From: a virus
Lineage: Duplodnaviria > Caudoviricetes
Length of the DNA: 64,000 bases
Reading direction: 5' to 3' (one strand)
Virus record (IMG/VR): IMGVR_UViG_3300029305_006387
Coordinates: 3,221-67,220 of that record
Positions within the stretch are counted from its first letter, which is position 1. Each line of letters starts with the position of its first letter. Below, piece after piece: positions 25,111 through 41,981 of the stretch. The position numbers and the translations under genes are program-made. The notes below the pieces were generated by a model. It did not search any database, was not told where the DNA came from, and worked only from the letters and a program-made list of their open reading frames with translations.

Positions 25111-25568
25111 TGGTAATTCAACAGTATGACGAAAAACTGAAAAGGTGGGTCATATCCGGTGTTGGTCGTATTGTGGCGAGGGACGGTCAAAGTCCCTTGC
25201 TACAAACGGTCGCCAAAGGATTCAAAAGAATAGGTTTTTCGGTAAATACAGGCACGATAATCAACGGACAAGGGGAACATATCTACGAAACGGTTGTGTG
25301 TGCGGTGTATAGCAATATGTGGAACAAACAACTTTACGATATTGCTACAACTTTGAAAAAGAACGACGTGGTGCAATTCGCGGGGTGGGTTAAAGAAGGC
25401 GAGTTTGAAGATAGAGAAACAGGGACGATGAAACCGAGCAAAGAATGCCGCATCGAGTGGCTTTTACCGCTCAATCTTGTTGCTCCGCTTGTGAAGCCTG
25501 AAACCGACATAAACATACCAACGAAATACGCTACGGGCGAAGAAAAAGACGACGACTATCTTTTTTAA
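25110..25568 (+). CDS. second OB-fold / SSB-like protein
   Basis: VVCAVY...LKKNDVVQFAGWVKE...; acidic aromatic tail DDDYLF. Confidence 0.65.
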   Translation: MVIQQYDEKLKRWVISGVGRIVARDGQSPLLQTVAKGFKRIGFSVNTGTIINGQGEHIYETVVCAVYSNMWNKQLYDIATTLKKNDVVQFAGWVKEGEFEDRETGTMKPSKECRIEWLLPLNLVAPLVKPETDINIPTKYATGEEKDDDYLF

Positions 25569-25586
25569 TAAATAGGGAGAGGTGAA

Positions 25587-25850
25587 ATGGAAACAGACGA
25601 TAGAAGAAAAAAAACGGGAATCCCGAATTTTGGTGGAAATCTCGTATTATCGGGATATGACACGGAGAGAGATTTGAATAAAGCCAAGAAAGACATTGAG
25701 CGTATGCTTATGATTTTGAGTTCTGAAAGTGTCTATAACATTATCAAATTTCTTGCTCCATATAGGGCTGAAATGGCAAAGCGGGAACAGTTGGAATACA
25801 ACGACCTTACAGAAAGGGCAAAAAATGGAAAAACAAATCAAAAGCCGTAA
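25587..25850 (+). CDS. hypothetical protein
   Basis: ORF with GAGGTG SD. Confidence 0.55.
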   Translation: METDDRRKKTGIPNFGGNLVLSGYDTERDLNKAKKDIERMLMILSSESVYNIIKFLAPYRAEMAKREQLEYNDLTERAKNGKTNQKP

Positions 25851-26268
25851 GAGAGTAAAAGAATTTGCCGAGGTGTTCACCTCGGAACGCGAAGTTAAAG
25901 CTATGTGCGACCTTCTTCCTGATGAAATTTGGAACAATATCGAAAGCACCTTTCTTGAACCTGCTTGCGGGAACGGAAACTTTCTCGTCGAGATTTTTTC
26001 AAGAAAGTTGGAGCGTTGCAATAGCGAAAAAGAAGGTCTTAAAGCATTGGCGAGTATTGTCGGTGTGGATATTCAAAATGACAACGTAGAAGAGAGCAGA
26101 AAACGACTGCGCGAGTTGTACCTGAAACGGTTTCCGTCGGCAAACGCATTTTGTCTTGTTTTATTGGCACAGATACTGCACAACAATATATTCTGCGACG
26201 ACAGCCTAAAAAGGATGCAGTCGTGGATAGATGAAACAAAGCCAACACAATTAAAATTGGAGATTTGA
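25825..26268 (+). CDS. SAM-binding half of an N6-adenine methyltransferase
   Basis: AEVFT (X), FLEPACGNGNFL (I), GVDI (II), CDDSL (III); no NPPY/DPPY before stop. Confidence 0.7.
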   Translation: MEKQIKSRKRVKEFAEVFTSEREVKAMCDLLPDEIWNNIESTFLEPACGNGNFLVEIFSRKLERCNSEKEGLKALASIVGVDIQNDNVEESRKRLRELYLKRFPSANAFCLVLLAQILHNNIFCDDSLKRMQSWIDETKPTQLKLEI

Positions 26269-26272
26269 AACA

Positions 26273-26878
26273 ATGAAGATTATACCTTCTTTTGATAACA
26301 TAGAAAAAGGCTACTGCGTATTCGAGAAACGCGGAAAATATAAAGGATTGGACGAGAACGACATCCCGCAGTTTTCAAACCCGCTCTCATTAGATGTAAT
26401 GATTGCTCACGGTGCATTCAAAAAGCATCTCACAATAGAGATATTATTAGACAGAAAGCGGGGAAGGAGAGCGTTCTGCTTTGGTTATGATGATAAGAGA
26501 TACCCCTACACTTTTGAATATTCGCAAGCAGGGTACGACGAAATGCTCAAAAAGATTGAAAGCGTGTTGCGCGACGACTTGCGGCGCATAACAGAATTGT
26601 TGGATGATATTTCCGCGCCACAACTATTCGCCAAATATTGCCACGAAAACAACGGGCGAGAAAGCGATAAAGAACGGAATAAACGGTATCTCATTCTTGG
26701 AAATATGTACAAGGTTGAGAACGTTGAAATGGGGCAGAGCAGTACGAGTATTTCATTGCGCGGAATAAAAGGCTCTTTTAATAGCGTGAGCTTCAATTTC
26801 TTTGTAATGATTGACGGGGAATACAAAGAACACGATATTTACAAGGATAAAAAATACAATCCGTATTTGCGAGGATAA
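26273..26878 (+). CDS. hypothetical protein
   Basis: 201 aa ORF in operon. Confidence 0.6.
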   Translation: MKIIPSFDNIEKGYCVFEKRGKYKGLDENDIPQFSNPLSLDVMIAHGAFKKHLTIEILLDRKRGRRAFCFGYDDKRYPYTFEYSQAGYDEMLKKIESVLRDDLRRITELLDDISAPQLFAKYCHENNGRESDKERNKRYLILGNMYKVENVEMGQSSTSISLRGIKGSFNSVSFNFFVMIDGEYKEHDIYKDKKYNPYLRG

Positions 26879-26879
26879 T

Positions 26880-27551
26880 ATGAAAAAGACGAAAATTGAT
26901 TGGTGCGACTGCACAGTAAATCCCGTTGTTGGGTGTAAAAATGGTTGCGAATACTGCTATGCAAAGAAGATTAACGATAGATTCAAAATTGTCCCCGATT
27001 TTAAGAAACCGCAATTCTTCCCGGAGCGACTGAAACAGTTTGAAAGTAAAGCTCCCAAAAGTGTATTTATCGACAGTATGAGCGATATAGCGAATTGGAA
27101 ACAGGCTTGGTTTGACGAAACTATGGAGGCAATCCATAATAATCCGCAACACCAATACATTGCCCTTACGAAAAATGTCGCCGAGTTAAGGGAAAGACTA
27201 TGGTTGTATTTCTGCAAGTACACAAAAGTTCAACCGCACAATCTCTTTGTTGGAAAGACGATTACTCAAAAAAGGAATCCTTCTCTGAAACCACTCAACG
27301 TTGACTTTTTGAGCATCGAACCGTTGTTAGAGCCGATTGATATAATTCCGTATATAGACCCGGTATTGAAAACAGTAATTATTGGGGCTGAAACGGGTAA
27401 TAGAAAACAAAAAGTAGTACCCAAAAAACAATGGGTGGAAGATATTGTGGATGCGGCTACCATTTATGGCGTGGGGATTTTTATGAAGGAAAGCCTGCGT
27501 GGAATAATGGGAGAAGATTTCAGACAAGATAAATTGCCTTGGCAACATTAG
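26880..27551 (+). CDS. DUF5131 (phage Gp37/Gp68) radical-SAM-like protein
   Basis: KTKIDWCD.TVNPVVGCKNGCEYCYA...LTKN...FLSIEPLL...VIIGAETG...FMKE. Confidence 0.9.
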   Translation: MKKTKIDWCDCTVNPVVGCKNGCEYCYAKKINDRFKIVPDFKKPQFFPERLKQFESKAPKSVFIDSMSDIANWKQAWFDETMEAIHNNPQHQYIALTKNVAELRERLWLYFCKYTKVQPHNLFVGKTITQKRNPSLKPLNVDFLSIEPLLEPIDIIPYIDPVLKTVIIGAETGNRKQKVVPKKQWVEDIVDAATIYGVGIFMKESLRGIMGEDFRQDKLPWQH

Positions 27552-27561
27552 GAGTAAGGAT

Positions 27562-27969
27562 ATGGGATTTACAAGAAATCGGTACAACGGAAAATATAAC
27601 GCAAAAAAAATAGTAATAGACGGACACGAGTTTGCGAGTAACAAGGAAGCAAAGAGATACGGGGAACTTTCGTATCTCTTGGAGCAAGGCAAAATCAAAG
27701 ACCTTGAAATCCAAAAAGAGTTTTTGCTTATTCCTACGCAAAGAGAGCCTGATATTATTGGCAAGCGTGGTGGAGTAAAAAAAGGAAAGGTAATAGAGCA
27801 ATCCGTGAAATACATAGCGGACTTTGTTTACACCGACGTAGAAACAGGGGAAATGGTTGTTGAAGATGTCAAAGGCTACCGCGACCCTGCAAGCGCGGGG
27901 ATTGTCAAGTATATCTTAAAACGAAAAATGATGCTGTATTTCCACGGAATCCGAATAAAGGAGATTTGA
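27562..27969 (+). CDS. DUF1064 family PD-(D/E)xK nuclease-like protein
   Basis: KYNAKKIVIDGHEFASNKEAKRY...YIADFVY...VVEDVKG. Confidence 0.9.
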   Translation: MGFTRNRYNGKYNAKKIVIDGHEFASNKEAKRYGELSYLLEQGKIKDLEIQKEFLLIPTQREPDIIGKRGGVKKGKVIEQSVKYIADFVYTDVETGEMVVEDVKGYRDPASAGIVKYILKRKMMLYFHGIRIKEI

Positions 27970-28190
27970 GAATAATGGGAACGACTGATATTTGCGAACT
28001 TGTGATAAAAGAAATAACGGAAAGCGAGTTGTCCGTTAATAGTATAGCGAAAAAGTCCGGGATAAGCGAGGCGACAATTCGCGGTTGGTTGCGCGGAAAA
28101 GGAACACCGTCCATTGCAAACGCACAGTTTGTATTGTCAGTCTTGGGCAAAGAACTTTGTATTAAGGAGAAAGCGACCAATGGGCAATAG
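27966..28190 (+). CDS. XRE-family HTH protein
   Basis: SVNSIAKKSGISEATIRGWLRGKGTPSI. Confidence 0.8.
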   Translation: MRIMGTTDICELVIKEITESELSVNSIAKKSGISEATIRGWLRGKGTPSIANAQFVLSVLGKELCIKEKATNGQ

Positions 28191-28380
28191 AAAGATTTTT
28201 CGCTGTAAATGCAAAAAGGAAAACGGGCAGATTTGCGGAAACCCTCTATATGCAGTAAAAGACGGGGAAGTGGTTATGAAACGCCACGGCAGGGAAATAC
28301 GATTCTCGGAAGAACAACGCGCCGAAATCAAATGCGAGCGATGCGGCGGGGTAACGATAGTAGGAGATAAGAATGGATAA
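28180..28380 (+). CDS. Com-like Cys4 zinc-ribbon protein
   Basis: FRCKC...ICG...EIKCERCG; AAGGAG SD. Confidence 0.55.
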   Translation: MGNRKIFRCKCKKENGQICGNPLYAVKDGEVVMKRHGREIRFSEEQRAEIKCERCGGVTIVGDKNG

Positions 28381-28717
28381 AAAAGAACGAGTTGCTGAAA
28401 TGGCAAAAATCATCAAGCCGTTAATGCCAAATCAATGTGGGTTTGTGGAAGAAACGGGCTGCGTTTTTGGCGACGACATAGATTGCCCCGAATGCGTAAT
28501 AGCACAAAGGCTCGTGGAAGTCGGATATAAAAAAGAGAGTGAAGTAGCAGGGGAGATTTTGGGGGAGATACGGAAAGCGGTCTTTGATTATCTGAATGTA
28601 AAAAATGAGCAACAAGCAGATAACCTTTCTTTAATTGATAGCACATTGACATACGATGTTGTAACGAAAAAGATTGCGGAGATTGCAAAACGATTGAAAT
28701 GCGAGGTGAAAGAGTGA
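28373..28717 (+). CDS. hypothetical protein
   Basis: ORF in operon. Confidence 0.55.
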   Translation: MDKKERVAEMAKIIKPLMPNQCGFVEETGCVFGDDIDCPECVIAQRLVEVGYKKESEVAGEILGEIRKAVFDYLNVKNEQQADNLSLIDSTLTYDVVTKKIAEIAKRLKCEVKE

Positions 28718-29466
28718 AATACATTGGGAGCAAGTCGAAAATTGCATCGGAGATTGTGCCGATTTTGCAGAACATCATAGACGAAAATAAAATTGAGTTT
28801 TACATAGAACCTTTTGTGGGTGGGTTTAATATTATTGATAAAATCAAATGCGTTGTGCGCATAGGCGCGGATATTGATAAGCTCGTGTGCAATCTCGTTG
28901 TTGAGTGCAGGAGAAATCCTTGTTTACTTGATACACTTAAAACGCCAACACGCGAAGAATATTACGACGTTCGGGATAATCCGCATAAATACCAAAGTTG
29001 GTACAGGGCGGCAATACTTCTCTTTGCATCGTATAATTCCCGTGTGTACGGCGGTTGCTACGGCGCGACGGCTAAAACGAAAGACGGAAAAACTCGTGAT
29101 TATTTTGAAGAAGCGAAGAGGAATTTCCAAAATCAACTTCCCAAATTAACAAATATATTCATTCAAAACTGCGATTATAGAAAAATGGTATTGCCAAAGC
29201 CCGCAAAAATGTTATTTTATTGCGACCCGCCTTACGCTGAAGGAATTGGCTACGGGGAGGGATTCAATACCGAAGAGTTTTGGGATTGGTGCAGAGAGCG
29301 AACCAAAGAAGGAAATATAGTTATTGTTAGCGAAAACTCTGCGCCGAAAGATTTTGCTTGCATTTGGGAAAAGGGCGTTGAAAGTCATTTGAATAATCGC
29401 AATAAGACGAGAAAAACAGAAAGACTTTTTATGTGTATGGATTGCACGTATGGGGTGCAGTCGTGA
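28714..29466 (+). CDS. D12-class (Dam-like) N6-adenine DNA methyltransferase
   Basis: KYIGSKSK, YIEPFVGG, FYCDPPY; intact frame. Confidence 0.9.
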   Translation: MKYIGSKSKIASEIVPILQNIIDENKIEFYIEPFVGGFNIIDKIKCVVRIGADIDKLVCNLVVECRRNPCLLDTLKTPTREEYYDVRDNPHKYQSWYRAAILLFASYNSRVYGGCYGATAKTKDGKTRDYFEEAKRNFQNQLPKLTNIFIQNCDYRKMVLPKPAKMLFYCDPPYAEGIGYGEGFNTEEFWDWCRERTKEGNIVIVSENSAPKDFACIWEKGVESHLNNRNKTRKTERLFMCMDCTYGVQS

Positions 29467-29669
29467 AATACAAGAAGGTTGACGAGTATATAACCTACAC
29501 CCCGCCCGAAGAGATTGCAATCTGTGAAGATTGTCCATACCCAACGGCGCAATGCGGCGATAGAGGGTGCAGACACTTTCTATCAGCAAAGAAAGCATTG
29601 GAAGAGAAACGAAGAAAGGAAAAACAGAACGGTGGAAAAGTACATAAACAAAATCATTCACGCGGATAG
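29463..29669 (+). CDS. small Cys-rich hypothetical protein
   Basis: ICEDCPYP...C...C. Confidence 0.5.
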   Translation: MKYKKVDEYITYTPPEEIAICEDCPYPTAQCGDRGCRHFLSAKKALEEKRRKEKQNGGKVHKQNHSRG

Positions 29670-30347
29670 CTACGACTTCATAAAAAGCATCCCCGATAAG
29701 AGTATTGATTGTATCTATACGGATATTCCCTATTTATATGTAAACGGCGGCGTTGGGCATAGTGAGTTGTGTGTGAGAACGGCGAGAAAGAAAAAAGAGC
29801 TTGAAGATATTTCAAAAGGGATTGATTACTCCATTCTCGAAGAGTTCAAAAGGGTTCTCAAAAAAGTCAACATTTTCATTTGGTGCAGTAAGATGCAACT
29901 GCTTGATATTATGAAATGGGGGGGGGGGGTTATAATACTGACTTGTTAGTATGGTGTAAGACGAACCCTACTCCGCAAACGAATAATATTTGGTTGCCCG
30001 ATTTGGAGTATTGCGTATATATGCGGGAGTTCGGCGTACCCTTAAACGACGGCTACGAGCTGAAAAGTAAATGGTATTGCTCCCCGGCGAATAAAAGCGA
30101 CAAGGATTTATTCGAGCATCCAACGATTAAACCCCTGCAACTTGTGGAACGGCATTTGCTACACGCAACGCAGCCAAACGATATTGTAGCAGATTTCTTT
30201 GTTGGGAGTGGCACGACAGCTGTCGCCTGCAAGGAGATAGGGCGGCGGTATATCGGGGTCGAAATTGAAGAAAAGTGGGTAAAGGTCGCAAACGATAGGC
30301 TGAACGGAATAGACCAAAATGGACAAATAAGCTTCTTTTTAAGATAA
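29632..30347 (+). pseudogene. beta-class N4/N6 DNA methyltransferase, frameshifted at G12 tract (phase-OFF candidate)
   Basis: IYTDIPY in 5' frame; HPTIKP and DFFVGSGTT in 3' frame; junction is G12 at 29918-29929; G13 or G10 restores one ORF. Confidence 0.85.
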
Positions 30348-30364
30348 CATTTCAGGAGAACAGG

Positions 30365-30739
30365 ATGGATAAAGCAAAGATAAAAGCACAGTTTCTTAAA
30401 TACAGCAAGGAGCAAATTATAGATGCAATGCTTTCGGAAACAATCTTCAATGAAGCAAGCTGTATCCTGCATCGTTGTTGGCATACGAAACACGAAGAGC
30501 TTTACAAGGCTATGTGCAAAGCCGGAGAAGAAGAGAATGCTGCGCTAACTGCTTTCATTGAATACCAAAAAGAACTCGCCGCAAAGTATGGCGACGGGGA
30601 AAAGTTTAAGTTTTCAAGGCTGTCGTCGCAAGAATCTATAAAGTATGATAAACTGTCGGCGGCGTGGGATGAAACGCGTAAACGATACGAAAAAGCAAAC
30701 AAACAAATCGACGCCTTTTACAAGGAGTGCAAGTTATGA
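30365..30739 (+). CDS. hypothetical protein
   Basis: 124 aa ORF with AGGA SD. Confidence 0.55.
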   Translation: MDKAKIKAQFLKYSKEQIIDAMLSETIFNEASCILHRCWHTKHEELYKAMCKAGEEENAALTAFIEYQKELAAKYGDGEKFKFSRLSSQESIKYDKLSAAWDETRKRYEKANKQIDAFYKECKL

Positions 30740-31020
30740 AACCTTCGTTAAACAGAACGGTTTATTGCATATACGAAGATTCCATACTCACGGAAGAAGT
30801 TTACGCACTCGGTGCGGACAGCTTTATTGTTGCGAGCTTCGGGAGTATGACAAATTCCGATAGTTGGGAATATTTCTTTGAAGAGTACAATGAAACTTGG
30901 TTCACAAGCCTTGCAAGAGCAAAGAAAAAATTGAAGGCTAAATACCATAGAGAACACGGAAAATCTTGTACTTTTGTCGAGATTGAGAGCGGATATTACG
31001 AGGCTATACCTGAAAAATGA
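30727..31020 (+). CDS. hypothetical protein
   Basis: ORF overlapping both neighbours. Confidence 0.55.
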   Translation: MQVMKPSLNRTVYCIYEDSILTEEVYALGADSFIVASFGSMTNSDSWEYFFEEYNETWFTSLARAKKKLKAKYHREHGKSCTFVEIESGYYEAIPEK

Positions 31021-32158
31021 CAAATTATCGCCTTCTTAACAAATACATAACCGAAGAAATAGACCCAAACGCGGTTTACGTTCTCTCGCTTTCATACGGA
31101 AAAGATAGTCTTGCTTGCCTTGGGGCGATTGAAAAACTTGGACTTCCGCTCCACAGAATCGTACACGCAGAGGTGTGGGCTACGGACACAATCCCCGCCG
31201 ACTTGCCGCCTATGATGGAATTTAAGGCAAGGGCAGATGAAATTATAGAACGGCGTTGGGGAATAAAAGTCGAGCATATTTGCGCAACGAAGAAGGTTTG
31301 CGGGGGGGGGCAACAAAAACTCTCTTACGAGCAAATGTTCTACAATGTGCTTGAAAGTGGACAGTTTGCAGGAGCAATCAAAGGATTCCCTCTTACAATC
31401 GGAAGTTGGTGTAAAAAGCTCAAATACGAAAACGGAGCGGTTGACGTACGAAGATATATTCTATCGAGTTGTGCAATCGCGGGGGGGGCAAGGATTTACG
31501 GTTTTCCGATGCTCGGCGGGCAATGGTGCAACTCGGCTCTCAAAATGCAAGCCTTCCGACAGACTCAATCACGGGCTTTGCGACGAAATGGAGTCAATAC
31601 TGCACGGGGGAACTCAAACGAACCGCATTACGGGCTTTCCCATTTCAGTCAACCGGGGAAATTGGTGTACCCAACTCAAACAAAGGGTTTTCCAAAAGCC
31701 CGAACACGACGGGCGGTATAAATGTCGTGCAGTATCTTGGGATTGCGGCGGACGAGCCTTTAAGAATTAAAAAACACGCCAAACGAAAAGATATTATATT
31801 GCCACTTGCAGAAATTGGGTGGGATGAAGATTATTGCGGATTGTGGGCAAAATACAATGATTTGCTATCGCCGACATATACGACGGCGACAAGGGGTGGC
31901 TGTTGGTTCTGCCACAACCAAGGGGTTGAGCAATTAAGGTTATTGCGAAAGAATTACCCTGACCTTTGGGAAATCTTATTAAAGTGGGACAAGGACAGCC
32001 CGACAACGTTTAAGCCCGACGGTCATACGGTGCGGGATTTTGACAAGAGATTCGAGATGGAAGATAAAGGAATTATCAACCCAAACGACACGTTTCGGTG
32101 GAAATACCTTACAGAACCGCCGCGAATAAGGCAAATGTCTATTTTTGACATTATTTAG
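31017..32158 (+). CDS. PAPS-reductase-family (PP-loop) protein split over three overlapping frames, with cassette array
   Basis: SLSYGKDS PP-loop in frame of 31017; YLGIAADEP and RGGCWFC in frame ending 32158; G9 (31302-31310) and G8 (31481-31488) tracts between them. Confidence 0.85.
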
Positions 32159-32170
32159 GAGAAGAATAAA

Positions 32171-33121
32171 ATGTTTCAAATGAGCTTATTTGACGGCAGT
32201 CAGCCGTTCAAAATAGATAAACCTATACGCCTAATAGAGCTTTTTGCAGGGTATGGGAGTCAAGCACTTTCCCTTAAATATCTCGGCGTACCCTTTGAAC
32301 ACCACGTTATAAGCGAATGGGCGGTAAAATCCATTCAAGCGTATAAGGATATGCACTTTGCAGGCGACTCAACGGATTACTCTATGGGGATGACCGACGG
32401 GGAACTCGTGGACTTTCTCGACGGGAGAATATCAGCAGACTACAACAAGCCTATGACCCGCAAACAAATAGAGAAACATAACGGTGGCGAAAAATGGCGT
32501 AGGGCAGTTTATAACAATATGAAAGCAACGAGAAACCTTGGTTCTATAACAATGGCAAGGGGGGGGGATTTACAGGTTGAAGAAACCGACAAATACTGCT
32601 ACATACTCACCTACTCATTCCCCTGCCAAGACCTTTCTTCGGCGGGAAAGGGCGCGGGGATGGAGAAAGGGAGTGGAACGCGTAGTGGATTGCTGTGGGA
32701 GGTGGAGCGATTGCTGAAGGAATGCAACGAACTTCCGCAGGTTCTTCTAATGGAGAATGTTCCTGATGTTACGAGCAGGAAAAATATGCCGCATTTCGCG
32801 CAATGGATAGCTTTTCTCGACGAGCTTGGGTACAAAACGAAATGGGCAAATTTGAATGCAAAGGAATTTGGCATTCCGCAAAACCGAGAGAGATGCTTTG
32901 CGGTTTCTATCCTTGGGGATTACTACTACAATCACCCCACGGGGTTTCCCCTAAAAAAAAGACTGCGCGACGTCCTTCAAAAAAATGTGGACGAAAGCTA
33001 TTATCTAAAAGAAGAAACAATACAAGCGTTAAACCTTCATAAAGAACGCCACGATGCCAAGGGCAATGGATTCGGTTGGCAACCTACGACGGGGGGGGTA
33101 CGCAAAGACTATCAAGACTGA
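32171..33121 (+). CDS. C5-cytosine DNA methyltransferase, N-terminal part (motifs I-VIII)
   Basis: LIELFAGYGSQ (I), SFPCQDLS (IV), MENV (VI), PQNRERCF (VIII); G9 in frame at 32559-32567; frame ends shortly after G8 at 33091-33098. Confidence 0.9.
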   Translation: MFQMSLFDGSQPFKIDKPIRLIELFAGYGSQALSLKYLGVPFEHHVISEWAVKSIQAYKDMHFAGDSTDYSMGMTDGELVDFLDGRISADYNKPMTRKQIEKHNGGEKWRRAVYNNMKATRNLGSITMARGGDLQVEETDKYCYILTYSFPCQDLSSAGKGAGMEKGSGTRSGLLWEVERLLKECNELPQVLLMENVPDVTSRKNMPHFAQWIAFLDELGYKTKWANLNAKEFGIPQNRERCFAVSILGDYYYNHPTGFPLKKRLRDVLQKNVDESYYLKEETIQALNLHKERHDAKGNGFGWQPTTGGVRKDYQD

Positions 33122-33396
33122 AAGCGGATACAGACCAAGTTCAAACTTTGTTATTGAGCAACCAAGGGAAAACGGTAAAGAAATTCGTGGACGTCGCGGG
33201 AACGGTGATGGCGCGAGATTGGAAGGGATTTGGCAATCAAGCGATGACGGCGGTGATGGAAACAAAAAAAACAATAGTTGTGAGCCGTCCGCACGGCTAT
33301 AATCGCGGTGGGATAGAAGAAACGGATATTTTCCCGACGGTGCGAAAATCGTCAACTATGGACGGAAATAATGGAGTGGTGGAATGGAAGAAATAA
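33076..33396 (+). other. out-of-frame TRD-like cassettes of the C5 methyltransferase
   Basis: VAGTVMARDWKG...AVME and IFPTVRKSS...GVVE units; third frame carries YAKTIKTESG...FVIE. Confidence 0.65.
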
Positions 33397-33992
33397 CAAG
33401 GTGTAAGCAGGTGGCAACGCTCACCGGTGGAAAATGGGATAGGACAATAGAAGCAAGTAGGCGTGTTTATTCTATCGAACATTTAGCCCCTACCGTAACT
33501 TGCGCGGGGGGGGGGAATCAAGAAGTGAAGATTTTAGAGCCTATGATAGTTGATGATACCTATAAGGGCAGAGAGCCGAGGGTAACGGATAACAGACCAA
33601 CGATTAGAAGTAAGCGCGACGGGTTGAAAGTTTTAGAGCCTATCATCTACGACGGATTTAATCAACAGGTACGCGCCGACCAAAGTTGTGTGGGCGCACT
33701 CACAAGGAATTGTGGGGCTGACCTTAAACGAAACGGTCAAGGGGTAGTCGAACCGCAAGAAACGGGCGTTCGAGTGCGCAAACTCACAGAAAAGGAGTGC
33801 TTTCGACTTCAAGCGGTAAAAGATGAAGATTACGAAAGAGTGCGCAAAAATCAATCAAAATCGAGTAGCTATCATTTGGCAGGCGACAGTATTTGCACAG
33901 TTTGCCTTATGGCTATTTTTGGTGGTATGATGGGCGTAGATTGGAGAAAAAAGATTGACGAGTTGGTAGAGGGACTGAAAGACAATGAGTAG
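33384..33992 (+). CDS. C5-cytosine DNA methyltransferase, C-terminal part (TRD repeats plus motifs IX-X)
   Basis: RVRKLTEKECFRLQ (IX), YHLAGDSI (X); own GGAG SD and ATG; G10 in frame at 33506-33515. Confidence 0.85.
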   Translation: MEEITRCKQVATLTGGKWDRTIEASRRVYSIEHLAPTVTCAGGGNQEVKILEPMIVDDTYKGREPRVTDNRPTIRSKRDGLKVLEPIIYDGFNQQVRADQSCVGALTRNCGADLKRNGQGVVEPQETGVRVRKLTEKECFRLQAVKDEDYERVRKNQSKSSSYHLAGDSICTVCLMAIFGGMMGVDWRKKIDELVEGLKDNE

Positions 33993-34248
33993 AGAAAACA
34001 TAATAAAATTTGTACCACCCGTACCGCTTGCAAAAAGATGTACCTTCTGTGGCGATTTGAGAAAAGAAGCGCAATTTCTATGCGATATGCCGATAGGAAC
34101 GAGCGTGAATACGATTGATTTCAAAAAGCGGTTGATTACTTGCAATAAAATTCTTTGTCGAGATTGCACAACGCAGGTAAACGGGTTTGACTTTTGTCCC
34201 GACTGTATCAAAAAAATAAAATCTGCTAAAAAGGGAGCGCGAGATTGA
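33985..34248 (+). CDS. Cys-rich zinc-finger hypothetical protein
   Basis: CTFC...LCD...TCNKILCRDC...FCPDC. Confidence 0.6.
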   Translation: MSRENIIKFVPPVPLAKRCTFCGDLRKEAQFLCDMPIGTSVNTIDFKKRLITCNKILCRDCTTQVNGFDFCPDCIKKIKSAKKGARD

Positions 34249-34249
34249 T

Positions 34250-34540
34250 ATGAAGAATGAAGAAATAAAAGAGCTTTCAAACGATTTACAGGAAGTGGGT
34301 AAATATGCTACGGATTGGCTTGTTGCAGAAACAAAGGAAATGCTTTCCAAGAACGGCAGGTTCAAGTCGAGCGAACACACAAAATCTCTCAATGAAATTG
34401 TAGCAGAACAGCTAATTGAAAGGGGCTACCAACAGAAAAGCAGAACGGTAGTAGAAATCTTGCAAGCAGTTGATTTAGAGAGTGGCGGTCAGACGGTTGC
34501 AATAACAAATGTTTTAAGAAAGAAATACGGAGTGAAATAG
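34250..34540 (+). CDS. hypothetical protein
   Basis: ORF in operon. Confidence 0.55.
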   Translation: MKNEEIKELSNDLQEVGKYATDWLVAETKEMLSKNGRFKSSEHTKSLNEIVAEQLIERGYQQKSRTVVEILQAVDLESGGQTVAITNVLRKKYGVK

Positions 34541-34544
34541 AGAT

Positions 34545-34769
34545 ATGGAACACGAGAAACTAATAAAAGATTGTGGGGCGTTTATTGACAAGTGTCCCAA
34601 CGAACCAAAACATACTATTGAATGCGAGGTTTGTCGTATGCGGTACGTTGAAAAGGAAAAAGCGAAAGAGATTTTGACCGAAATAAACAATCTATGCAAA
34701 GAAAAAGGAATGCTCTATTTATACGATTGGGTTGACCTTTGGAAAAAATATGTAGGAGAGAATGAATAA
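34545..34769 (+). CDS. hypothetical protein
   Basis: ORF in operon. Confidence 0.55.
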   Translation: MEHEKLIKDCGAFIDKCPNEPKHTIECEVCRMRYVEKEKAKEILTEINNLCKEKGMLYLYDWVDLWKKYVGENE

Positions 34770-35434
34770 TGAAAGCGTGGGCGGCAAGAGAAAAAGACGG
34801 GTTTAGTTGTGCGGTTGTATTTGCCGAAACAAGGGGGAAGGCAAGGGCGTTAGTCGTTTTGAATTATCACAAAATCCGAGAAAACGAATTGGTCGTCGAA
34901 ACAAGCACGTGGGATAGCCCTGAAATAAAGAATTATCGGGATGTTATTTACGAACAGGCGCGTAAAGAAATCGCGGGAAAAATCGCCGAAGAGTTAAAGA
35001 CATTATTTCCAATCAGCGGAGATGTGTTTAGATTCGCAACACCCGAAAATATACAAAAGGCTGTTGACGATGTTTGTAAAAGAGTTGCGGGCGGGCAATA
35101 TGTAAACACGACTACTTTAATAGAGCTTTCCACCGAGAAAAACCCGCTTACCGTGGAACAGTTAAAGGATTTGCCCATCGGCGCGTGGATTTGTGTGGAT
35201 GCTTTGCAGGACACAAAATATGAAACTGCGGGTGTGAGATATTGGAAGAAAACACCGCAAGCAAAATTCATTCCCGACGAATTTCAATGTGGGACTATTG
35301 GGTATGGTACGGCTTATAATCTAAAAGACTACGGCACGACTTGGCTTGCGTATTTACCTGAAAAACAACCCAAAAACATTGATTTCAGCAGATTCTATGA
35401 GCTTGTCGGCTTACCCAAAGGGAAAAATTCGTAA
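34769..35434 (+). CDS. hypothetical protein
   Basis: 221 aa ORF, last of early/middle operon. Confidence 0.55.
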   Translation: MKAWAAREKDGFSCAVVFAETRGKARALVVLNYHKIRENELVVETSTWDSPEIKNYRDVIYEQARKEIAGKIAEELKTLFPISGDVFRFATPENIQKAVDDVCKRVAGGQYVNTTTLIELSTEKNPLTVEQLKDLPIGAWICVDALQDTKYETAGVRYWKKTPQAKFIPDEFQCGTIGYGTAYNLKDYGTTWLAYLPEKQPKNIDFSRFYELVGLPKGKNS

Positions 35435-35464
35435 TATTCTGCGAATTGAAATAATTTGAAAGAC

Positions 35465-35493
35465 TTGTAAAACGAATAATTCTATGCTAAAAT
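35465..35493 (+). promoter_or_regulatory. promoter of packaging/structural operon
   Basis: TTGTAA-17 nt-TAAAAT with extended TGn. Confidence 0.6.
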
Positions 35494-35630
35494 ATAAAAA
35501 GAAACTGAATATTTTAGCGAAAATTATTATTCGCCAAGTAATTGACACGATAATAGGAAACACCTTATGTGCCTACACCAACTCGCGGAATGTGAGCAGG
35601 GCATAGTGTCTTTTACAAAAAATGCGCTTT

Positions 35631-35669
35631 AACCGAGTGAGTTGAACAAACTTACTCGGTTTTTCTTTT
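35631..35669 (+). terminator. intrinsic terminator within late-operon leader
   Basis: 11-bp stem AACCGAGTGAG/CTTACTCGGTT followed by TTTCTTTTC. Confidence 0.65.
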
Positions 35670-35707
35670 CATTGCAGGAACGCAAAATTGGGCAAACGGG
35701 AGAAGAA

Positions 35708-36793
35708 ATGGAGAACAGCAGGTCATCCAAAATTAAATACATTTGCCACAAATGCGGAGCAGAGTTAAGCGAAGAGAATTGCCGAGCGGAAGGAGTGCCA
35801 TACTGCATCTTTTGCGAAAGTGAATCGTTTGAAGAGTTTGAAAAGGCAAACGGAACGCATTTGGCTTTGTATTTGAACTGTGCGCGATTTGATGTGCCAC
35901 TCCACCCGTTGCTCCTTGGAAAAGATTTTGAGCAGGAAGAGAACAAATGGTTTTCCTACATTGAACTGCTTGAAGAAAACGGTAAGCACCTTGTGAACGA
36001 ACGACCCGCAAGTTTTGCAGACGGCGAATCAAGGTTGTTGCGGATTTTTGGTAAAGATTTTACTGAAAAAGATTTTGCGAAATATATTCACTACGAAAAA
36101 GATAGGCTTTCAAAGCTCCCCGGAACTGAAAAGCAAAGGGAAATGTGGGGAACGCGTACATTGTGGCAAAATCTGCCTATGACAACGGAAGTTTACGACG
36201 AGCTTGATAGGATTTACGATGCACGTATATCGAGATACAAAGGGGTTTCGTTGGACGACACCGTGCGTGAAGTTCTCAAAAAAGTTTCAACCCTTTCTCT
36301 CGTACAAGAACATTTACGCTCGCTCGGCGATGCGGCGGGATATGATAGGGTGCAAAAGATTATCGACAGTATGCTCGCATCCGAGCAACTTCGTAGAAAA
36401 GACGAAAAACCCGTAGAGCCATTGAAAATGGATGCAATGGTCGTTGCATTGGAAGCTATGGGGCTTATGGAGAACGGTCAACTGCTTAATTACGACGAGC
36501 TTGTAGAAGTTCTCCGCGATAAATTCGTTAAGTCAAAAAAATATGCTTATTCTTTGGACGTTGCAGACCAAATGATACTCGATATTCACAATACAATGAG
36601 AAAAAATGCAGACATAGCGACATTGGTTGATTTGCCTGCTGAAATGGAACTCGTTGACGAATACGGTGAATTTGAACCCGAAGAAACGGAGCAAGAGAAA
36701 GAGAATAAGAGATTTGCGGGATTAACAAAGGTACAGTTTGAAAAGCCTGCACCCGCGCCCGCCACAAAAAAAAGTAAAGGCGGTAAAAAGTAA
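35708..36793 (+). CDS. putative terminase small subunit / packaging-associated protein with N-terminal zinc finger
   Basis: ICHKCG...CIFC; directly upstream of and overlapping large terminase, as in SPbeta-like phages. Confidence 0.55.
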   Translation: MENSRSSKIKYICHKCGAELSEENCRAEGVPYCIFCESESFEEFEKANGTHLALYLNCARFDVPLHPLLLGKDFEQEENKWFSYIELLEENGKHLVNERPASFADGESRLLRIFGKDFTEKDFAKYIHYEKDRLSKLPGTEKQREMWGTRTLWQNLPMTTEVYDELDRIYDARISRYKGVSLDDTVREVLKKVSTLSLVQEHLRSLGDAAGYDRVQKIIDSMLASEQLRRKDEKPVEPLKMDAMVVALEAMGLMENGQLLNYDELVEVLRDKFVKSKKYAYSLDVADQMILDIHNTMRKNADIATLVDLPAEMELVDEYGEFEPEETEQEKENKRFAGLTKVQFEKPAPAPATKKSKGGKK

Positions 36794-38631
36794 TGCCTAC
36801 GGGTTATTGCGGAGAAGGGCGCAAATGGAACAAAAAGATAGGTCGTTGGGAAAAGACAAAAAAAGAGCAAGCGTTTGATTACGAGAGCGTAGATAAAAAG
36901 GCGTGGGGCTTGCTTATCAGCTTTTTCCGTTTCTATCCCGATTTTTGGTATGATTTGATTCGTTCGGAAAACGCTCCGTATGGGCTTGAACTTGCGCAGA
37001 GAATTATGCTCCGGGTGCAGGCAAGATACCAAACTACGTACATAACAGGCGCGAGAGGTATTACAAAGACCTTTGTGGCGATGCTCTCCAAAGAACACGA
37101 TGGGACTTTTTATCCCGGCGAGCAAGTTCGATATTACGCCCCCGCACAGAAACAATCCGCAAAACTTGCATCGCAAGCATTCGCCGTTACAGAAAAATGC
37201 TATCCGATTGCGACGAGCTATTGGAATAAAAATAACGACAGAGCGGATATGTTCCGTATCACAACCGATTACGGGTCAGAGTTCACAATGTATGCACCGC
37301 GCGGCGACAACTTTCACGCCGTAATTGCCGAAGAAATGGCGCAAGAAGGCGGCGAAGATGGATTTAACTTTGACGACTTTGAAGAAGATGTAAAGAAAGG
37401 GCATCGTCTTGAACGAATGATAAACGGCGTAAAAGACAGAACCCGCGTACAGTTAAAGTTTAACTGTATATCGAACGCATCTTCGCGGCAAAACAAGGCG
37501 TTTACCGTCTATCGCAAGACCGCCTTAAAAGCGATGATATTCGGCGATAAATACGACGGTTTCTGTATGGATATTTCTTGGATTTCGGCTTTACTCTGCA
37601 ATTTAAGGGGCATTGCTTACTACAAGAAAGAAAAATCTACATCAACAGTAGAAGTTTGGCAACGCGAAATGGAAGCGCGGTACACGGGAACGGGCGAAAA
37701 TCCTATGCTCTCCGACGAAATATTAGCCAAAAGCAAAAAACTTATGGTTATGGAAAATCGTCATAGCGGCGACCCGAATGCTGTATATGTAGTTGCTCAC
37801 GACGTTTCCTACGAAGAAGGACAAAAGAACGCAAAGTGCGCCGACGTCGTTTGGAAATGTACAAGATATACAACCCCCGCAAAGCGCGATAAGTATCGAA
37901 AACAAGCCGTATTTGTCGATAGCTATCCACCGCCAAAAACGGAAGCATTGCAAGCGCAAAAGTTGAAAGATTTGTGGTTACGGTTTTGTATGGATGGCGG
38001 TCAAGCGACATATATCGTGGTCGATGCTCGCGCCGTCGGCAAGACGGTGGTGCAAGAGCTTATGAAACCAACGGGTGATGGAACGCCTACGCTTTGTTGC
38101 TACGACCATTGCGCGTATGCAGATATTGAACAGCCTAACGCATTGCCTATTATTTATCCGTTAAAAGCGACAAGAGCGGGTGGAACGGACGACGAAGGGC
38201 AGATGATTAGATACCTTCAGCGTGAGTGGGAGCAAGGCAATATCGAGATATTGACGACAAACGTTCTTGACGGCGTGGAAGCGTACAAAATATTTCACGG
38301 AATAAAAGATACATTCGACGACGGCAAGGTAGCACAACCCTATAAGCAAACGGAAGGGTGGTGCGAAGAAATACAAAATCTTCAAGTCAAGCCGAGCGGA
38401 ACTTCGATAAAGGAAGTTCGGAAAAGTAAAGGAAAGCAACGCGACCGACATTCGGCGGGAAAATACGGCTTACGCTTTATTAGCCTTCTTGAAGATAAAC
38501 TCGTAAAAGAAACCTACAAAAAGAAGTCGTCGTGGTCGGATGCGATTGAGCAACGGCAGATTGACATCCCACGATATGGCGGTGTGCAAAACAATACAAG
38601 AGCGAACCTACTTGCATTAAGGAGAAGATAA
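36793..38631 (+). CDS. terL: terminase large subunit
   Basis: GARGITKT (Walker A), VIAEE (Walker B), VAHDVS (RNase H-like nuclease), RDRHSA. Confidence 0.9.
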   Translation: MPTGYCGEGRKWNKKIGRWEKTKKEQAFDYESVDKKAWGLLISFFRFYPDFWYDLIRSENAPYGLELAQRIMLRVQARYQTTYITGARGITKTFVAMLSKEHDGTFYPGEQVRYYAPAQKQSAKLASQAFAVTEKCYPIATSYWNKNNDRADMFRITTDYGSEFTMYAPRGDNFHAVIAEEMAQEGGEDGFNFDDFEEDVKKGHRLERMINGVKDRTRVQLKFNCISNASSRQNKAFTVYRKTALKAMIFGDKYDGFCMDISWISALLCNLRGIAYYKKEKSTSTVEVWQREMEARYTGTGENPMLSDEILAKSKKLMVMENRHSGDPNAVYVVAHDVSYEEGQKNAKCADVVWKCTRYTTPAKRDKYRKQAVFVDSYPPPKTEALQAQKLKDLWLRFCMDGGQATYIVVDARAVGKTVVQELMKPTGDGTPTLCCYDHCAYADIEQPNALPIIYPLKATRAGGTDDEGQMIRYLQREWEQGNIEILTTNVLDGVEAYKIFHGIKDTFDDGKVAQPYKQTEGWCEEIQNLQVKPSGTSIKEVRKSKGKQRDRHSAGKYGLRFISLLEDKLVKETYKKKSSWSDAIEQRQIDIPRYGGVQNNTRANLLALRRR

Positions 38632-38942
38632 TGGAGAAATATTCGCTTTATATTGGCAGGTACAAAGATTTGTCCGAAGAGGAGTTTAGTTATTTCTCTC
38701 CAATGAGTGGGTATATGCTTGTGTATAGCCAAAAAGAAGTAGAAGGCTTAAAAAAAGTTCTTCCCGAAAAAGAAAGCAAACTTTCTTCTGATGAAAGAGC
38801 GTGGTTGACCCAAACGAAACTCACCATCAGCGCAAGACATTTCGGGCAATCTATGGAAGAGGCGACGAAAAACGCGGAGCAGTTTTTTGAACTTCTCAAA
38901 AAAGAATTAAAAGCAGAGCAAGAAAAAGTAAACAAGGGTTAG
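38631..38942 (+). CDS. hypothetical protein
   Basis: ORF between terL and portal. Confidence 0.6.
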   Translation: MEKYSLYIGRYKDLSEEEFSYFSPMSGYMLVYSQKEVEGLKKVLPEKESKLSSDERAWLTQTKLTISARHFGQSMEEATKNAEQFFELLKKELKAEQEKVNKG

Positions 38943-38943
38943 T

Positions 38944-40704
38944 ATGAACAAAACGGAGCAACAAAAACAGAATAAGAACGCGAGCGGGCAATCGGTAGCC
39001 GAAACGAAAAAGACTTCGTATTCTGCCATTCTCGAAACTCTGAATAGCATAATGTCCAATTACGGACAAGGGTTGCCCGTTGCAAATCTCTTTGGCGCAT
39101 TTTCTCGCGCGAGCGAAAGTTATGCAAATCAACCGCAGATACAGAATGCAAGAATTAAGGCAATTTCGTCCTTGCCCGTTGATTACACAAAGGAAGAGAT
39201 AGGGGAGTTTTTACGTACCCCGTATCAAAATGAACAACCCTTGCGGCAAACGAGCGAAATCTTGCGGTGGACTGCCTATCCCTATTTCAAAATCTCAAAA
39301 ACATATCAGGATATTCCCACTTATCATTATTGCGCAACGCCGTTGTATTTGACGAGCGAAGATGCAAAATCGGAAGAGTATAAGAGAGAAGAACGCTTGA
39401 TTGATAAAGTCAATAAAACTCTTCGCCCTGATATTCAAGCCCATAGGATTGCCGGGGAAGCTGTCAACCAAGGAAAAGTTTTTTATTCCTTGCGCGTAAA
39501 CGCCGACAAGGTTCACAATAAAGTGAACTATGCGTTTCTGCAACAACTTCCAACGGATTGGTGTTGGATTGTTGGGAAAAACAATTTAAGCGGATGGACT
39601 ATTTCGTTTAATATGTTTTACTTTATGCAACCGGGGACAGACCCTTTACAATACGGCGATTTATTTAAGCCTTACCTTGATGACTTCAATAGTATGTTTG
39701 AAGAACCGAAATCGAGAAAAAGGGGAGAAATGGCGGTGTACGCAAGCGTTCCCTGCAAAGGCAAAGATATTCATTTTTACCCTTGCAATATCAAGTCGAA
39801 CGCCACGGGCAATCCAAAAACATTTAAGCAAAACGGCGAGTGGTATTACTATGTAACACTCCCCGTGGACAAGGTGTATGCGTTTGAAATCGACGACACG
39901 ACACCTGCTGTTGCATCTCCTTTGAGCGGTTTAATGCTTACCTATTCGCAACAGAGCGATTATGAGGCGGCGCAGTTGAGCTTATTACTCAATCCCCTAA
40001 TTAAGATTTTCACAGGCGAAATTCCGTACTTCCAAGACAATGGAAGCACGGTGGAAGATGGCTATCGTCTTTCTCGCGGTGGAAGATTGCTCTTTGAAAC
40101 CTTATTCCAAGAGCTTATGCTTAAAAATAATACGTCGGGCGCATCGTTCTTCTCTGCTCCCGTGCAGAACATTAAGAGCCACGATTTCACGGAAAGCGCA
40201 AACGCAAACGAAATCTCTTCTTCGTTCAATAAGTACGGTATGGCAAAGGCGGGATTAAGCGGTATTATTCCCGTTGACGAAGATGTTAAAGCAGGGCAAG
40301 CAGAGATTTCCGCAAAACTTGAAAGCCGTTACTCAAATTGTATCTACAAACAGTTTGAGAGAATGATGGACAATCTCTACGAGAGCCTGAATCTTAAACA
40401 CGCTTTCAGATTTACAATGTTCGGTTCAATATATACCGACAATGAATTGCGCGAAAATCTTGAAAAGCGGGTATCGAACGGCGACACGAGCGTATATCCG
40501 TATCTTGCTGCGCTTGACGGTCAGAGTATGTTGGATAAAGTTGCGGTGATGAACGGTGTAGAGGCAAGTGGTTTCTTGGATATGCTTACACCGCCCGCGA
40601 CGTCGTACACGCAAAGCGCAGACGGTAAAACGGTGGGTCGCCCCAAAAACAAAAAGATAACGGAAGGAAATGAAAAATCTGCCGATAGCGGCAATGTAAA
40701 ATGA
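38944..40704 (+). CDS. portal protein (putative)
   Basis: 586 aa, position after terminase, helical composition. Confidence 0.7.
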   Translation: MNKTEQQKQNKNASGQSVAETKKTSYSAILETLNSIMSNYGQGLPVANLFGAFSRASESYANQPQIQNARIKAISSLPVDYTKEEIGEFLRTPYQNEQPLRQTSEILRWTAYPYFKISKTYQDIPTYHYCATPLYLTSEDAKSEEYKREERLIDKVNKTLRPDIQAHRIAGEAVNQGKVFYSLRVNADKVHNKVNYAFLQQLPTDWCWIVGKNNLSGWTISFNMFYFMQPGTDPLQYGDLFKPYLDDFNSMFEEPKSRKRGEMAVYASVPCKGKDIHFYPCNIKSNATGNPKTFKQNGEWYYYVTLPVDKVYAFEIDDTTPAVASPLSGLMLTYSQQSDYEAAQLSLLLNPLIKIFTGEIPYFQDNGSTVEDGYRLSRGGRLLFETLFQELMLKNNTSGASFFSAPVQNIKSHDFTESANANEISSSFNKYGMAKAGLSGIIPVDEDVKAGQAEISAKLESRYSNCIYKQFERMMDNLYESLNLKHAFRFTMFGSIYTDNELRENLEKRVSNGDTSVYPYLAALDGQSMLDKVAVMNGVEASGFLDMLTPPATSYTQSADGKTVGRPKNKKITEGNEKSADSGNVK

Positions 40705-40722
40705 TGCAAGGAGAATCAGATT

Positions 40723-40878
40723 ATGAAAATTAAGGCTATATTGCAAAACGAGAAAAAGGAAGTCGTGTATATCATTGCCGTAGATATGAATTTCGTTTAT
40801 TACGTAAAAAACACGGGCGAAATTGGGTATTGCAAACATTGCAAAATAAAGGTTTCCGACCCGACTTATCTCGTGTAA
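40723..40878 (+). CDS. small hypothetical protein (51 aa)
   Basis: Translated by hand MKIKAILQNEK...PTYLV*; AAGGAG SD. Confidence 0.5.
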   Translation: MKIKAILQNEKKEVVYIIAVDMNFVYYVKNTGEIGYCKHCKIKVSDPTYLV

Positions 40879-40890
40879 GGCGGTGATGAT

Positions 40891-41571
40891 ATGTCTGAAA
40901 CATTAAGACCTATGGAAGAGATACGGGCTATGATAAAAGAGAAAACAGCTCCAACGGAAGAGCCTGTGGTTGAAGAAAAAAACGGGCAGGCGGCAGAATC
41001 TCACGCCATTGTAGCCCAAGAAGATGGCAAGGCTATTACTGAATTGTCGGCTTCGGATATTCGATTAAAGGTTGATAAGTCGAAGTCGATGGAAGAGCAA
41101 GCAGAAGATATTGTTGGTGCTATGGCTACGGCAAAAGCCGTACAAAACGAAGAAACAGCCCGTGAGTTGACGGAGAAAAAATCGGAAGAATTGCTTGCAA
41201 AAGCCGAAACAAAGAAAAAGCAAGCGCAAACAGCCGAAACGAAAGCCGAAGTTGAAAAGCAAGAGGCAAATCGGAGTAAAAACGAAGCGGTTTTGCAAAC
41301 CTTTGGCATAAATAAGCATTTGCCCGATTGGTTGCTCGGTATTATGGTGTTTATTTTTTCACCGATATTCATTGTGTTGACAATCGCCATCGGTGTCCCG
41401 TGCGGGATTATCAAGGTATTTATTGACGATATAGACAATATTCTCGTTCGTTATGAAGCGGCAGATGCGAAGAATAAACCAAAAATTAAAGTTACGGTTT
41501 GGATTTTTCTCGTCTTGCTCGTTCTTGCGGCGGCAACGTTTATCGTCTTAAAATGTCTTGGAAAAATCTAA
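40891..41571 (+). CDS. coiled-coil membrane protein
   Basis: Acidic coiled coil followed by two hydrophobic segments. Confidence 0.65.
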   Translation: MSETLRPMEEIRAMIKEKTAPTEEPVVEEKNGQAAESHAIVAQEDGKAITELSASDIRLKVDKSKSMEEQAEDIVGAMATAKAVQNEETARELTEKKSEELLAKAETKKKQAQTAETKAEVEKQEANRSKNEAVLQTFGINKHLPDWLLGIMVFIFSPIFIVLTIAIGVPCGIIKVFIDDIDNILVRYEAADAKNKPKIKVTVWIFLVLLVLAAATFIVLKCLGKI

Positions 41572-41656
41572 TATGAAATAGTATCGCAGGGTTTTAGGGA
41601 AGAAAAATTGGAAAACCGCGCCGACTATAAAAAATAATAAAAGGAGAAAAAGGATT

Positions 41657-41968: not shown

Positions 41969-41981
41969 TAGGAGGTAAATT

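Follow-up and report, generated by a model that had tools for sequence, protein, structure and literature searches.

Length-variable poly-G tracts as candidate contingency loci in the DNA-modification genes of a temperate gut phage

Phase-variable DNA methyltransferases are textbook knowledge in bacteria. Here we describe six long poly-G tracts in three adjacent DNA-modification genes of a temperate phage (Caudoviricetes). The tracts are in a 64,000-nucleotide stretch of DNA (the window) that comprises bases 3221-67220 of the 67,220-bp IMG/VR record IMGVR_UViG_3300029305_006387, a record rated complete. We found that all six tracts differ in length between near-identical copies of the genes. 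We think it likely that they are hypermutable contingency loci, kept by selection in the DNA-modification island of this phage.

The Bacillus phage enzymes M.SPRI, M.Phi3TI and M.Rho11sI are multispecific C5 methyltransferases. Their target-recognition units are in tandem on a single polypeptide, and all of these target-recognition domains (TRDs) are expressed together. Programmed -1 frameshift signals consist of a slippery heptamer, a spacer and an H-type pseudoknot, and are known from dnaX, insertion sequence (IS) elements and phage tail chaperones.

Phase variation of bacterial DNA methyltransferases is established, for example for C. jejuni cj0031 (PMC4889913). For phages, the proposal of contingency loci is very recent and concerns A-runs in the T-even phage genes T2 agt and T4 rIIA (Gomez, Barrick and Waters 2025, bioRxiv, PMC12633550). 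Reversible frameshifts in T2 agt produce ON and OFF subpopulations that trade off the modification-dependent nuclease TgvAB against McrA/BC (PMC12633550). The same report mentions poly-G in receptor-binding genes of Fletchervirus and in the methylase gene of BPP-1, none of them studied further. As summarized in PMC12633550 and PMC12823448, hypermutable poly-G tracts (7-11) of Campylobacter phages of the genus Fletchervirus diversify the phenotype of the progeny (Sorensen et al. 2021, Cell Rep 35:109214). Our literature search found no paper on poly-G-switched modification islands in gut phages.

Poly-G tracts and their lengths in near-identical copies

We found seven runs of at least eight G in the 64-kb window. 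Six of them cluster in a 3.6-kb segment, each on the sense strand of a plus-strand gene. The seven runs are:

29918-29929, plus strand: G12 tract between the two halves of an N4/N6 methyltransferase gene; out of frame (OFF) in the window
31302-31310, plus strand: G9 tract T1 at the junction of the N domain and cassette 1 of a PP-loop gene; in frame
31481-31488, plus strand: G8 tract T2 inside cassette 2 of the PP-loop gene; sets the downstream frame and hence the cassettes read
32559-32567, plus strand: G9 tract in the core of a C5 methyltransferase, between motifs I and IV; in frame in the window
33091-33098, plus strand: G8 tract after motif VIII of the C5 methyltransferase; ends the core frame after 316 amino acids (aa)
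33506-33515, plus strand: G10 tract in the C part of the C5 methyltransferase, on the 'T.T..GGG' motif of a TRD-like unit; in frame
11717-11724, plus strand: non-coding G8 tract

An initial annotation, made from the letters alone, had reported the six clustered tracts and had called the non-coding run at 11717 the only other one. Our run census confirmed both statements. There were no C runs of seven or more in the window.

These homopolymers are longer than chance allows in a reading frame. The lengths of G runs are bimodal, with 20 runs of G5, three of G6, none of G7 and seven of G8-12. The pattern G8 had 15 overlapping matches, compared to 0.70 +/- 1.14 in 100 dinucleotide shuffles (largest value, 5). 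All Gly-Gly-Gly sites of the island (4/4) are pure or nearly pure G, written as G8-9. Outside the island, none of the Gly-Gly-Gly sites (0/8) uses GGG three times, and GGG makes up 21% of the Gly codons.

Long A/T runs elsewhere in the window served as a control. Runs of 7-8 A or T deep in long open reading frames (ORFs), at 21484, 36858, 40976, 48151 and 56577, leave those ORFs uninterrupted. The run at 56577 is in the 1289-aa tape-measure ORF, in agreement with the earlier observation that long genes elsewhere in the window are intact. We saw no frame break at the remaining A/T runs, which are near ORF ends or intergenic and were not examined one by one.

We found a near-identical prophage in a 1.7-Mb metagenome-assembled genome (MAG) of a Clostridia bacterium from roe-deer caecum; the terminase (TerL) is 99% identical in amino acid sequence. 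The prophage has 8 runs of at least eight G, and the rest of the MAG has a single one, at the end of a contig. The island DNA of the prophage is 95.7% identical to the window. The two differ at the following sites:

29918: G12 in the window, G10 (in frame) in the MAG
31481: G8 in the window, G9 in the MAG
33091: G8 in the window, G9 in the MAG
11717: G8 in the window, G9 in the MAG
31302: an extra T beside the tract in the MAG
33264: A8 in the window, A7 in the MAG
29254: G4AG3 in the window, pure G8 in the MAG

The 9.36 kb aligned across the island (25500-34851) had five frame-changing coding indels, at 29918, 31481, 33091 and 33264 and beside 31302, together with 393 substitutions. The adjoining region (34865-48628), which extends from the terminase genes into the structural module, had 242 substitutions and a single gap. 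Polymorphism of the repeats is far above the background indel rate, and the length changes shift genes between in-frame and out-of-frame states.

We also compared tract lengths in a wider population of close relatives. We deduced the lengths from the count of Gly residues and the frame that follows them, in clusters of proteins at least 90% identical, mostly at least 97%. The gene calls in these clusters come from independent JGI, ENA, Logan and NCBI assemblies. The initial annotation had proposed that tracts invariant across populations and relatives would speak against switching; all six tracts varied among near-identical copies. The observed product lengths (316, 368, 377 and 408 aa; 234, 251 and 235 aa; 202 aa versus 47+155 aa) equal the three-frame predictions, and different genomes and contigs had different combinations of tract states. 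These data support the suggestion that the population carries combinatorial ON/OFF and variant states. Records of the 316-aa C5 product (P0123) come from JGI/IMG as well as ENA; those of the 368-aa product (P0121) come from NCBI, Logan and ENA. The source lists suggest that the same samples had been assembled more than once, in which case different pipelines reproduced the lengths.

The tracts would gain or lose one or more G through slipped-strand mispairing as the DNA is replicated. Since the six tracts are inside reading frames, a change in length resets the frame. Switching would then occur within a phage lineage.

The methyltransferase genes

The tract with the simplest predicted effect is in the N4/N6 methyltransferase gene. 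The gene is:

29632-30347, plus strand: N4/N6 (beta-class) DNA methyltransferase, split by the G12 tract into 29632-29949 and 29916-30347

The C fragment (29916-30347) matched Pfam PF01555 (N6_N4) with E=1e-26 and 94.8 bits (gathering cut-off, 26.7), and the N fragment (29632-29949) matched methyltransferase PHROGs. Both halves of an N6_N4 DNA methyltransferase are present. Frame analysis indicated that G13 or G10 at 29918 would join the halves, which G12 keeps in separate frames; in the MAG, where the tract is G10, the gene is a continuous 237-aa ORF. The tract had 8, 9, 10, 11 or 12 G among near-identical proteins, and only 10 is in frame. It would act as a plain ON/OFF switch, with G10 and G13 ON and the G12 of the window OFF. 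The Gly loop encoded by the tract replaces a variable loop of tract-free N4/N6 relatives. Relatives 70% identical have no counterpart of the tract, only an ordinary loop at that place, and variability at 29918 is demonstrable only inside the close cluster.

A fourth modification gene carries a tract in some lineages. Upstream of the N4/N6 gene are:

28699-29466, plus strand: D12-class Dam methyltransferase, intact ORF
29254-29261, plus strand: interrupted tract GGGGAGGG (G4AG3) in the Dam (D12) gene; pure in-frame G8 in the MAG copy

The site is a pure G8 in the near-identical prophage, and the tract of the window is interrupted ('locked').

The C5 cytosine methyltransferase gene has three of the six tracts. 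Its features, in addition to those tracts, are:

32171-33121, plus strand: C5 core with motifs I-VIII, 316 aa in the G8 state (PF00145, E=5e-42)
33099-33396, plus strand: TRD-like units in two frames; the second frame junction is at the A8 run
33264-33271, plus strand: A8 run (A_AAA_AAA in frame 1), A7 in another lineage; a frame junction in relatives too
33384-33992, plus strand: C part with further TRD-like units and motifs IX-X (PF00145 positions 269-319; methyltransferase PHROG matches)

The core scored 144.9 bits to PF00145; the C part alone scored 19.6 bits, under the cut-off of 22. Motifs I-VIII and IX-X are both present, on separate ORFs.

Two of the C5 tracts would be master switches, 32559 for the core and 33506 for the C part. 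Lengths of 9, 10 and 12 were found at 32559; G10 gives a 136-aa truncation (P0127) and G12 one extra Gly (P0133). At 33506 the lengths were 9, 10 and 12. Ten G give a 202-aa product in frame, and 9 or 12 G give a 47-48-aa stub plus a 155-aa restart ORF, as seen in many contigs. In C5 relatives, tracts are likewise on the conserved 'T.T..GGG' of the recognition units, even in phages of 25-28% G+C (G10 in L009; G8 in L016 and L017).

The third C5 tract, at 33091, is predicted to select between recognition modules. The core would either end at the tract or gain one of two alternative target-recognition-like sets, which would alter the specificity of methylation. By frame prediction, G9 leads to frame 1 with two recognition-like units, and G7 or G10 leads to frame 0 with another unit. 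Lengths of 8, 9, 10 and 11 were found, with products of 316 aa (n=8), 368 aa (n=9) and 377 or 408-409 aa (n=10), all in a single cluster at 90% identity or more. One protein (P0130) is the same as the C5 core of the window except for the frame after the tract, with G10 instead of G8. The G8 state may be 'core only' rather than OFF. Downstream, with A7 in place of A8 at 33264, the last recognition-like unit falls in the other frame. At 33384-33396 the frame changes through a stop/ATG overlap of modules, as in L009; this is a module boundary rather than a tract or damage.

The PP-loop gene and its putative frameshift signal

The remaining two clustered tracts (T1 and T2) are in a gene for a putative PP-loop ATPase. 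Features of this gene, besides the tracts, are:

31017-32158, plus strand: putative PP-loop ATPase (PAPS-reductase-like) gene; N domain in frame 0, four cassettes in three frames, C domain in frame 2
31685-31729, plus strand: putative -1 frameshift signal; heptamer G_GGT_TTT at 31685-31691, 6-nucleotide (nt) spacer, H-type pseudoknot
31698-31702/31710-31714 (S1) and 31705-31709/31725-31729 (S2), plus strand: stems of the pseudoknot, with covariation in an alignment of 56 loci

The protein has the motif SLSYGKDS and matched PHROG 424 ('PAPS reductase', 3e-28). It had no Pfam match at E<1, and searches of NCBIfam and of PDB sequences gave nothing useful; its assignment comes from PHROGs and from a comparison of folds. 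A Foldseek search with an AlphaFold2 (AF2) model returned LarE, TtuA, NcsA, GMP synthetase and PAPS reductase (E ~1e-3, TM 0.3-0.36). Three of these, LarE, TtuA and NcsA, are [4Fe-4S] sulfur transferases. In this model, built for the closest intact relative, the N and C domains are confident and the off-frame cassette region is a disordered, low-confidence linker.

We found that the region between the two domains contains four diverged cassettes with the motif 'GFP..WC..LK', in frames 0, 0, 2 and 1. The off-frame cassettes retain the motif across very diverged relatives, and the cassette cysteine and a CWFC motif are invariant. Together, T1 and T2 would determine which of the alternative Cys-loop cassettes is translated in its proper frame. 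Of the three frames, one would lead directly into the C domain. A second, that of the window, would reach the C domain via G_GGU_UUU and the pseudoknot, and a third would be truncated.

Natural variants were consistent with selection among cassettes. T1 had 9, 10 or 11 G and T2 had 4, 7, 8, 9, 10 or 12. The cassettes read were 1+2 (P0270), 2 alone (P0293; T1=11, T2=9), or 1 followed by the cassette-4 frame (P0294 and others). In the MAG state (T2=9), cassettes 1+3 are read directly into the C domain. For the cassette-4 frame we looked for a +1 or -2 shift at the slippery site and found no convincing route to the C domain.

The frame break at T2 is probably a cassette switch with ribosomal frameshift rescue. 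The initial annotation had placed breaks between protein segments at 29918, 31481 and 33091. The breaks at 29918 and 33091 stood; the one at 31481 may be no simple break. It is where the C-domain frame opens, and the N-terminal frame stays open to 31721, beyond the frameshift signal. The heptamer of the window is read in frame 0, and a -1 slip there leads to the C-domain frame. The G9/G8 state of the window may thus give a full-length protein with cassettes 1+2, because frame 0 is open to 31721 and the slip reaches the C domain. The signal has the features expected of a -1 site: an X_XXY_YYZ heptamer in the incoming frame, a spacer of 5-9 nt, and a stable downstream structure.

Comparison of related loci supported the pseudoknot. 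The stems were 92.7% paired in 56 distinct sequences, versus at most 52.7% when slid. There were 55 double-change cells, and none of 500 shuffles reached the observed covariation score. In all multi-cassette genes a run of at least four T is followed, after a spacer of 5-6 nt, by a hairpin with a loop that pairs to the codons of the following 'VQY'. Most distinct single-cassette loci (15/19) are without the T4 run. From these sequences, the slippery site and pseudoknot probably return the 'broken' frame of the window to the C domain by -1 frameshifting.

Repeats were associated with multiple cassettes in the wider family. We collected 150 loci homologous to the PP-loop gene. Genes with one cassette ('TYE..FY...GFP...WC..LK') were intact in 41 cases and broken in 8, mostly without repeats. 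Genes with two to four cassettes were intact in 20 cases and broken in 80, and nearly all had poly-G (6-11) or (GA)n (8-35 nt). These repeats are at junctions between the N domain and a cassette or between cassettes, homologous to 31302 and 31481. Three loci (L049, L051 and L055) had no mismatches in 1644 nt and (AG) tracts of 18, 20 and 16 nt. Similarly, L173 and L176 had no mismatches in 1521 nt and differed by G8 versus G7. Repeat-free clusters had up to 37 mismatches, with no gaps in the two largest and 1-3 in four others. In L134 (3464-6970) the PP-loop gene is fused in frame in a 1169-aa ORF, and in L058 it continues from a C5-methyltransferase-like N terminus. These two loci suggest occasional fusions with other modification enzymes.

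Explanations, genome context and comparison with known systems

Selection for switching is, we believe, the likely explanation for these tracts. The phage population would hold many modification 'phasotypes', and it is plausible that these are a hedge against both restriction enzymes and modification-dependent nucleases. On a more extended interpretation, the island is a combinatorial 'modification phasome': three or four enzymes are switched, recognition modules and catalytic-loop cassettes are chosen, and the pseudoknot re-merges frames, so that several enzyme variants are stored per gene. We regard this extension as about as likely as not.

Several observations weigh against selected switching. 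The tract lengths come from assembly consensus rather than reads. The N4/N6 gene was OFF in 13 of the 15 states listed, which relaxed selection would fit too. The A8/A7 difference at 33264 may be a single event because it tracks lineage. The third PP-loop frame is common in the data, without an evident route to the C domain. In addition, the host MAG encodes MutS, MutS2 and MutL. Their presence led us to reject the idea of a host without mismatch repair, and with MutS and MutL present, the products of slippage have to evade correction.

It is unlikely, in our estimation, that the tracts act mainly at the level of RNA or translation, through transcriptional slippage or ribosomal frameshifting, with heritable switching secondary. 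Such a mechanism would suit the location of all tracts on the sense strand and the putative recoding elsewhere in the PP-loop family, where a slippery site and pseudoknot are found. However, all six tracts vary abundantly in length at the DNA level, and efficient slippage of RNA polymerase has been described mostly for A/T runs. We saw no stimulatory structure after the G tracts, none having been looked for. An RNA-level mechanism could operate alongside DNA slippage instead of taking its place.

The genes might instead be decaying pseudogenes in a domesticated or defective prophage, and the tracts functionless mutational hot spots. The many out-of-frame copies, the mostly OFF N4/N6 gene and the extra T beside T1 in the MAG copy would all be expected of decay. 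We nevertheless consider decay improbable. Frame-changing indels are only at or beside tracts despite 4% substitution divergence, and the tracts are uninterrupted and made of rare all-GGG codons. The alternative frames are open, and an in-frame version of every gene is present in the population. Conserved cassette motifs in very diverged relatives, and a conserved, covarying pseudoknot inside a supposedly dead gene, would be hard to reconcile with loss of function. Finally, the record is rated complete and its structural genes are intact.

That the frame breaks are homopolymer sequencing or assembly errors, and the real tracts fixed and in frame, is very improbable: long G runs are error-prone in several technologies and two breaks of the window are one G shorter than in the MAG, but the length differences go in both directions and reach 4 nt (G12 vs G10; n=8-12), identical products are recorded in at least two source collections (as would be seen if different pipelines recovered the same state), (GA)n at homologous junctions differs by 2-14 nt between otherwise identical contigs in many Illumina SPAdes assemblies, A/T runs deep in long ORFs leave these uninterrupted, and the existence and placement of the tracts are independent of their exact length. 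Systematic under-calling of G runs in the window assembly was rejected as well, because G12 vs G10 goes the opposite way.

The genome is that of a temperate phage from the gut, with a Clostridia bacterium as its host. A replication initiator, RecE/RecT and an integrase (16241-17377, minus strand) are encoded in the window. Among the 20 window ORFs that we scanned against PHROGs, none was recognized as a DNA polymerase, so the host replisome presumably replicates the phage. The gene order of the island is Dam, split N6_N4 methyltransferase, two small ORFs, PP-loop gene, and C5 methyltransferase in three pieces. A further 579-aa ORF (1144-2883, minus strand) had DNA-methyltransferase PHROG matches and no tract, and the phage would thus have at least five modification genes. 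The gene order of the MAG prophage is permuted: 25.5-48.6 kb of the window corresponds to 165.9-192.3 kb, and 10.9-14.2 kb to 221.6-224.9 kb, of one MAG contig (G001:C24). Because of this permutation, the attachment site should adjoin the tRNA cluster and integrase (~15.9-16.3 kb). We found no relative of the modification island among INPHARED phages. Scans of IMG/VR and metagenomes gave best relatives of ~72-76% amino acid identity to the phage and none closer; the near-identical copies came from the MAG prophage and the protein clusters.

Other repeats in the window are outside the island. The non-coding G8 tract at 11717 follows approximately four ATTTCAC repeats and precedes TATATT (region 11640-11740), and it may be a length-variable regulatory spacer. 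A promoter scan found no sigma-70 promoter at 16-18-nt spacing with the tract in its spacer. A candidate seen by eye (TTTTCA-N15-TATATT), which would near optimal spacing as the tract lengthens, was set aside as unsupported. Runs of A8, A8 and A7 at 18634-18682, with a spacing of exactly 21 nt, are in the gap that separates a leftward ORF (18183-18626) from rightward ORFs (19079 onward); these runs could be phased A-tracts, as in bent DNA. In the region 8390-9311, a T8 run (8766) coincides with the overlap of plus-strand ORFs 8429-8812 and 8790-9311; the real genes there may be on the minus strand instead.

The locus shows the contingency principle in an uncultivated temperate phage of the gut or rumen, with the switches concentrated in DNA-marking genes and with many natural combinations. 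If the states change methylation, one phage lineage could pre-adapt to hosts with differing restriction-modification and modification-dependent defenses. This bears on the prediction of host range, on methylation-based linking of phages to hosts in metagenomes, and on pipelines that discard such genes as pseudogenes. Selection of modules and cassettes, combined with a frameshift pseudoknot, makes the locus a testable case of multi-frame information storage in an enzyme gene.

Each of the known systems shares part of this arrangement. Phasevarions (Type III mod, Type I hsdS/hsdM, Type IIG) have the same repeat-driven frame switching of methyltransferases, which changes the methylome of a subpopulation. 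In contrast to these chromosomal systems, usually studied as regulators of expression, the enzymes here are orphan phage methyltransferases, for which protection of phage DNA is the more likely role. Fletchervirus has poly-G of similar length in phage genes. In that genus the tracts are in receptor-binding proteins, and phase variation by poly-G is frequent in the host itself; in the phage described here the tracts are in modification genes, and the host MAG is without such tracts outside the prophage. A feature shared with the M.SPRI group is the presence of several recognition units between motifs VIII and IX of the C5 methyltransferase of a phage. However, the core and C part are split here, and the units are distributed over two frames and two ORFs and would be chosen by G8-10 and A7/8 runs. 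The putative frameshift signal resembles programmed -1 signals in its X_XXY_YYZ heptamer, 6-nt spacer and pseudoknot with two covarying stems. Unlike dnaX-type signals, it would merge entry frames set by upstream repeats rather than make two products from one frame. Like T2 agt, the locus has simple repeats in phage DNA-modifying genes and would follow the same bet-hedging logic. T2 agt and T4 rIIA have A6-A9 runs and one switch per gene in lytic T-even phages; the locus described here has six runs of G8-G12 in three adjacent genes of a temperate gut phage, and some of its tracts would select alternative modules, beyond switching a gene off.

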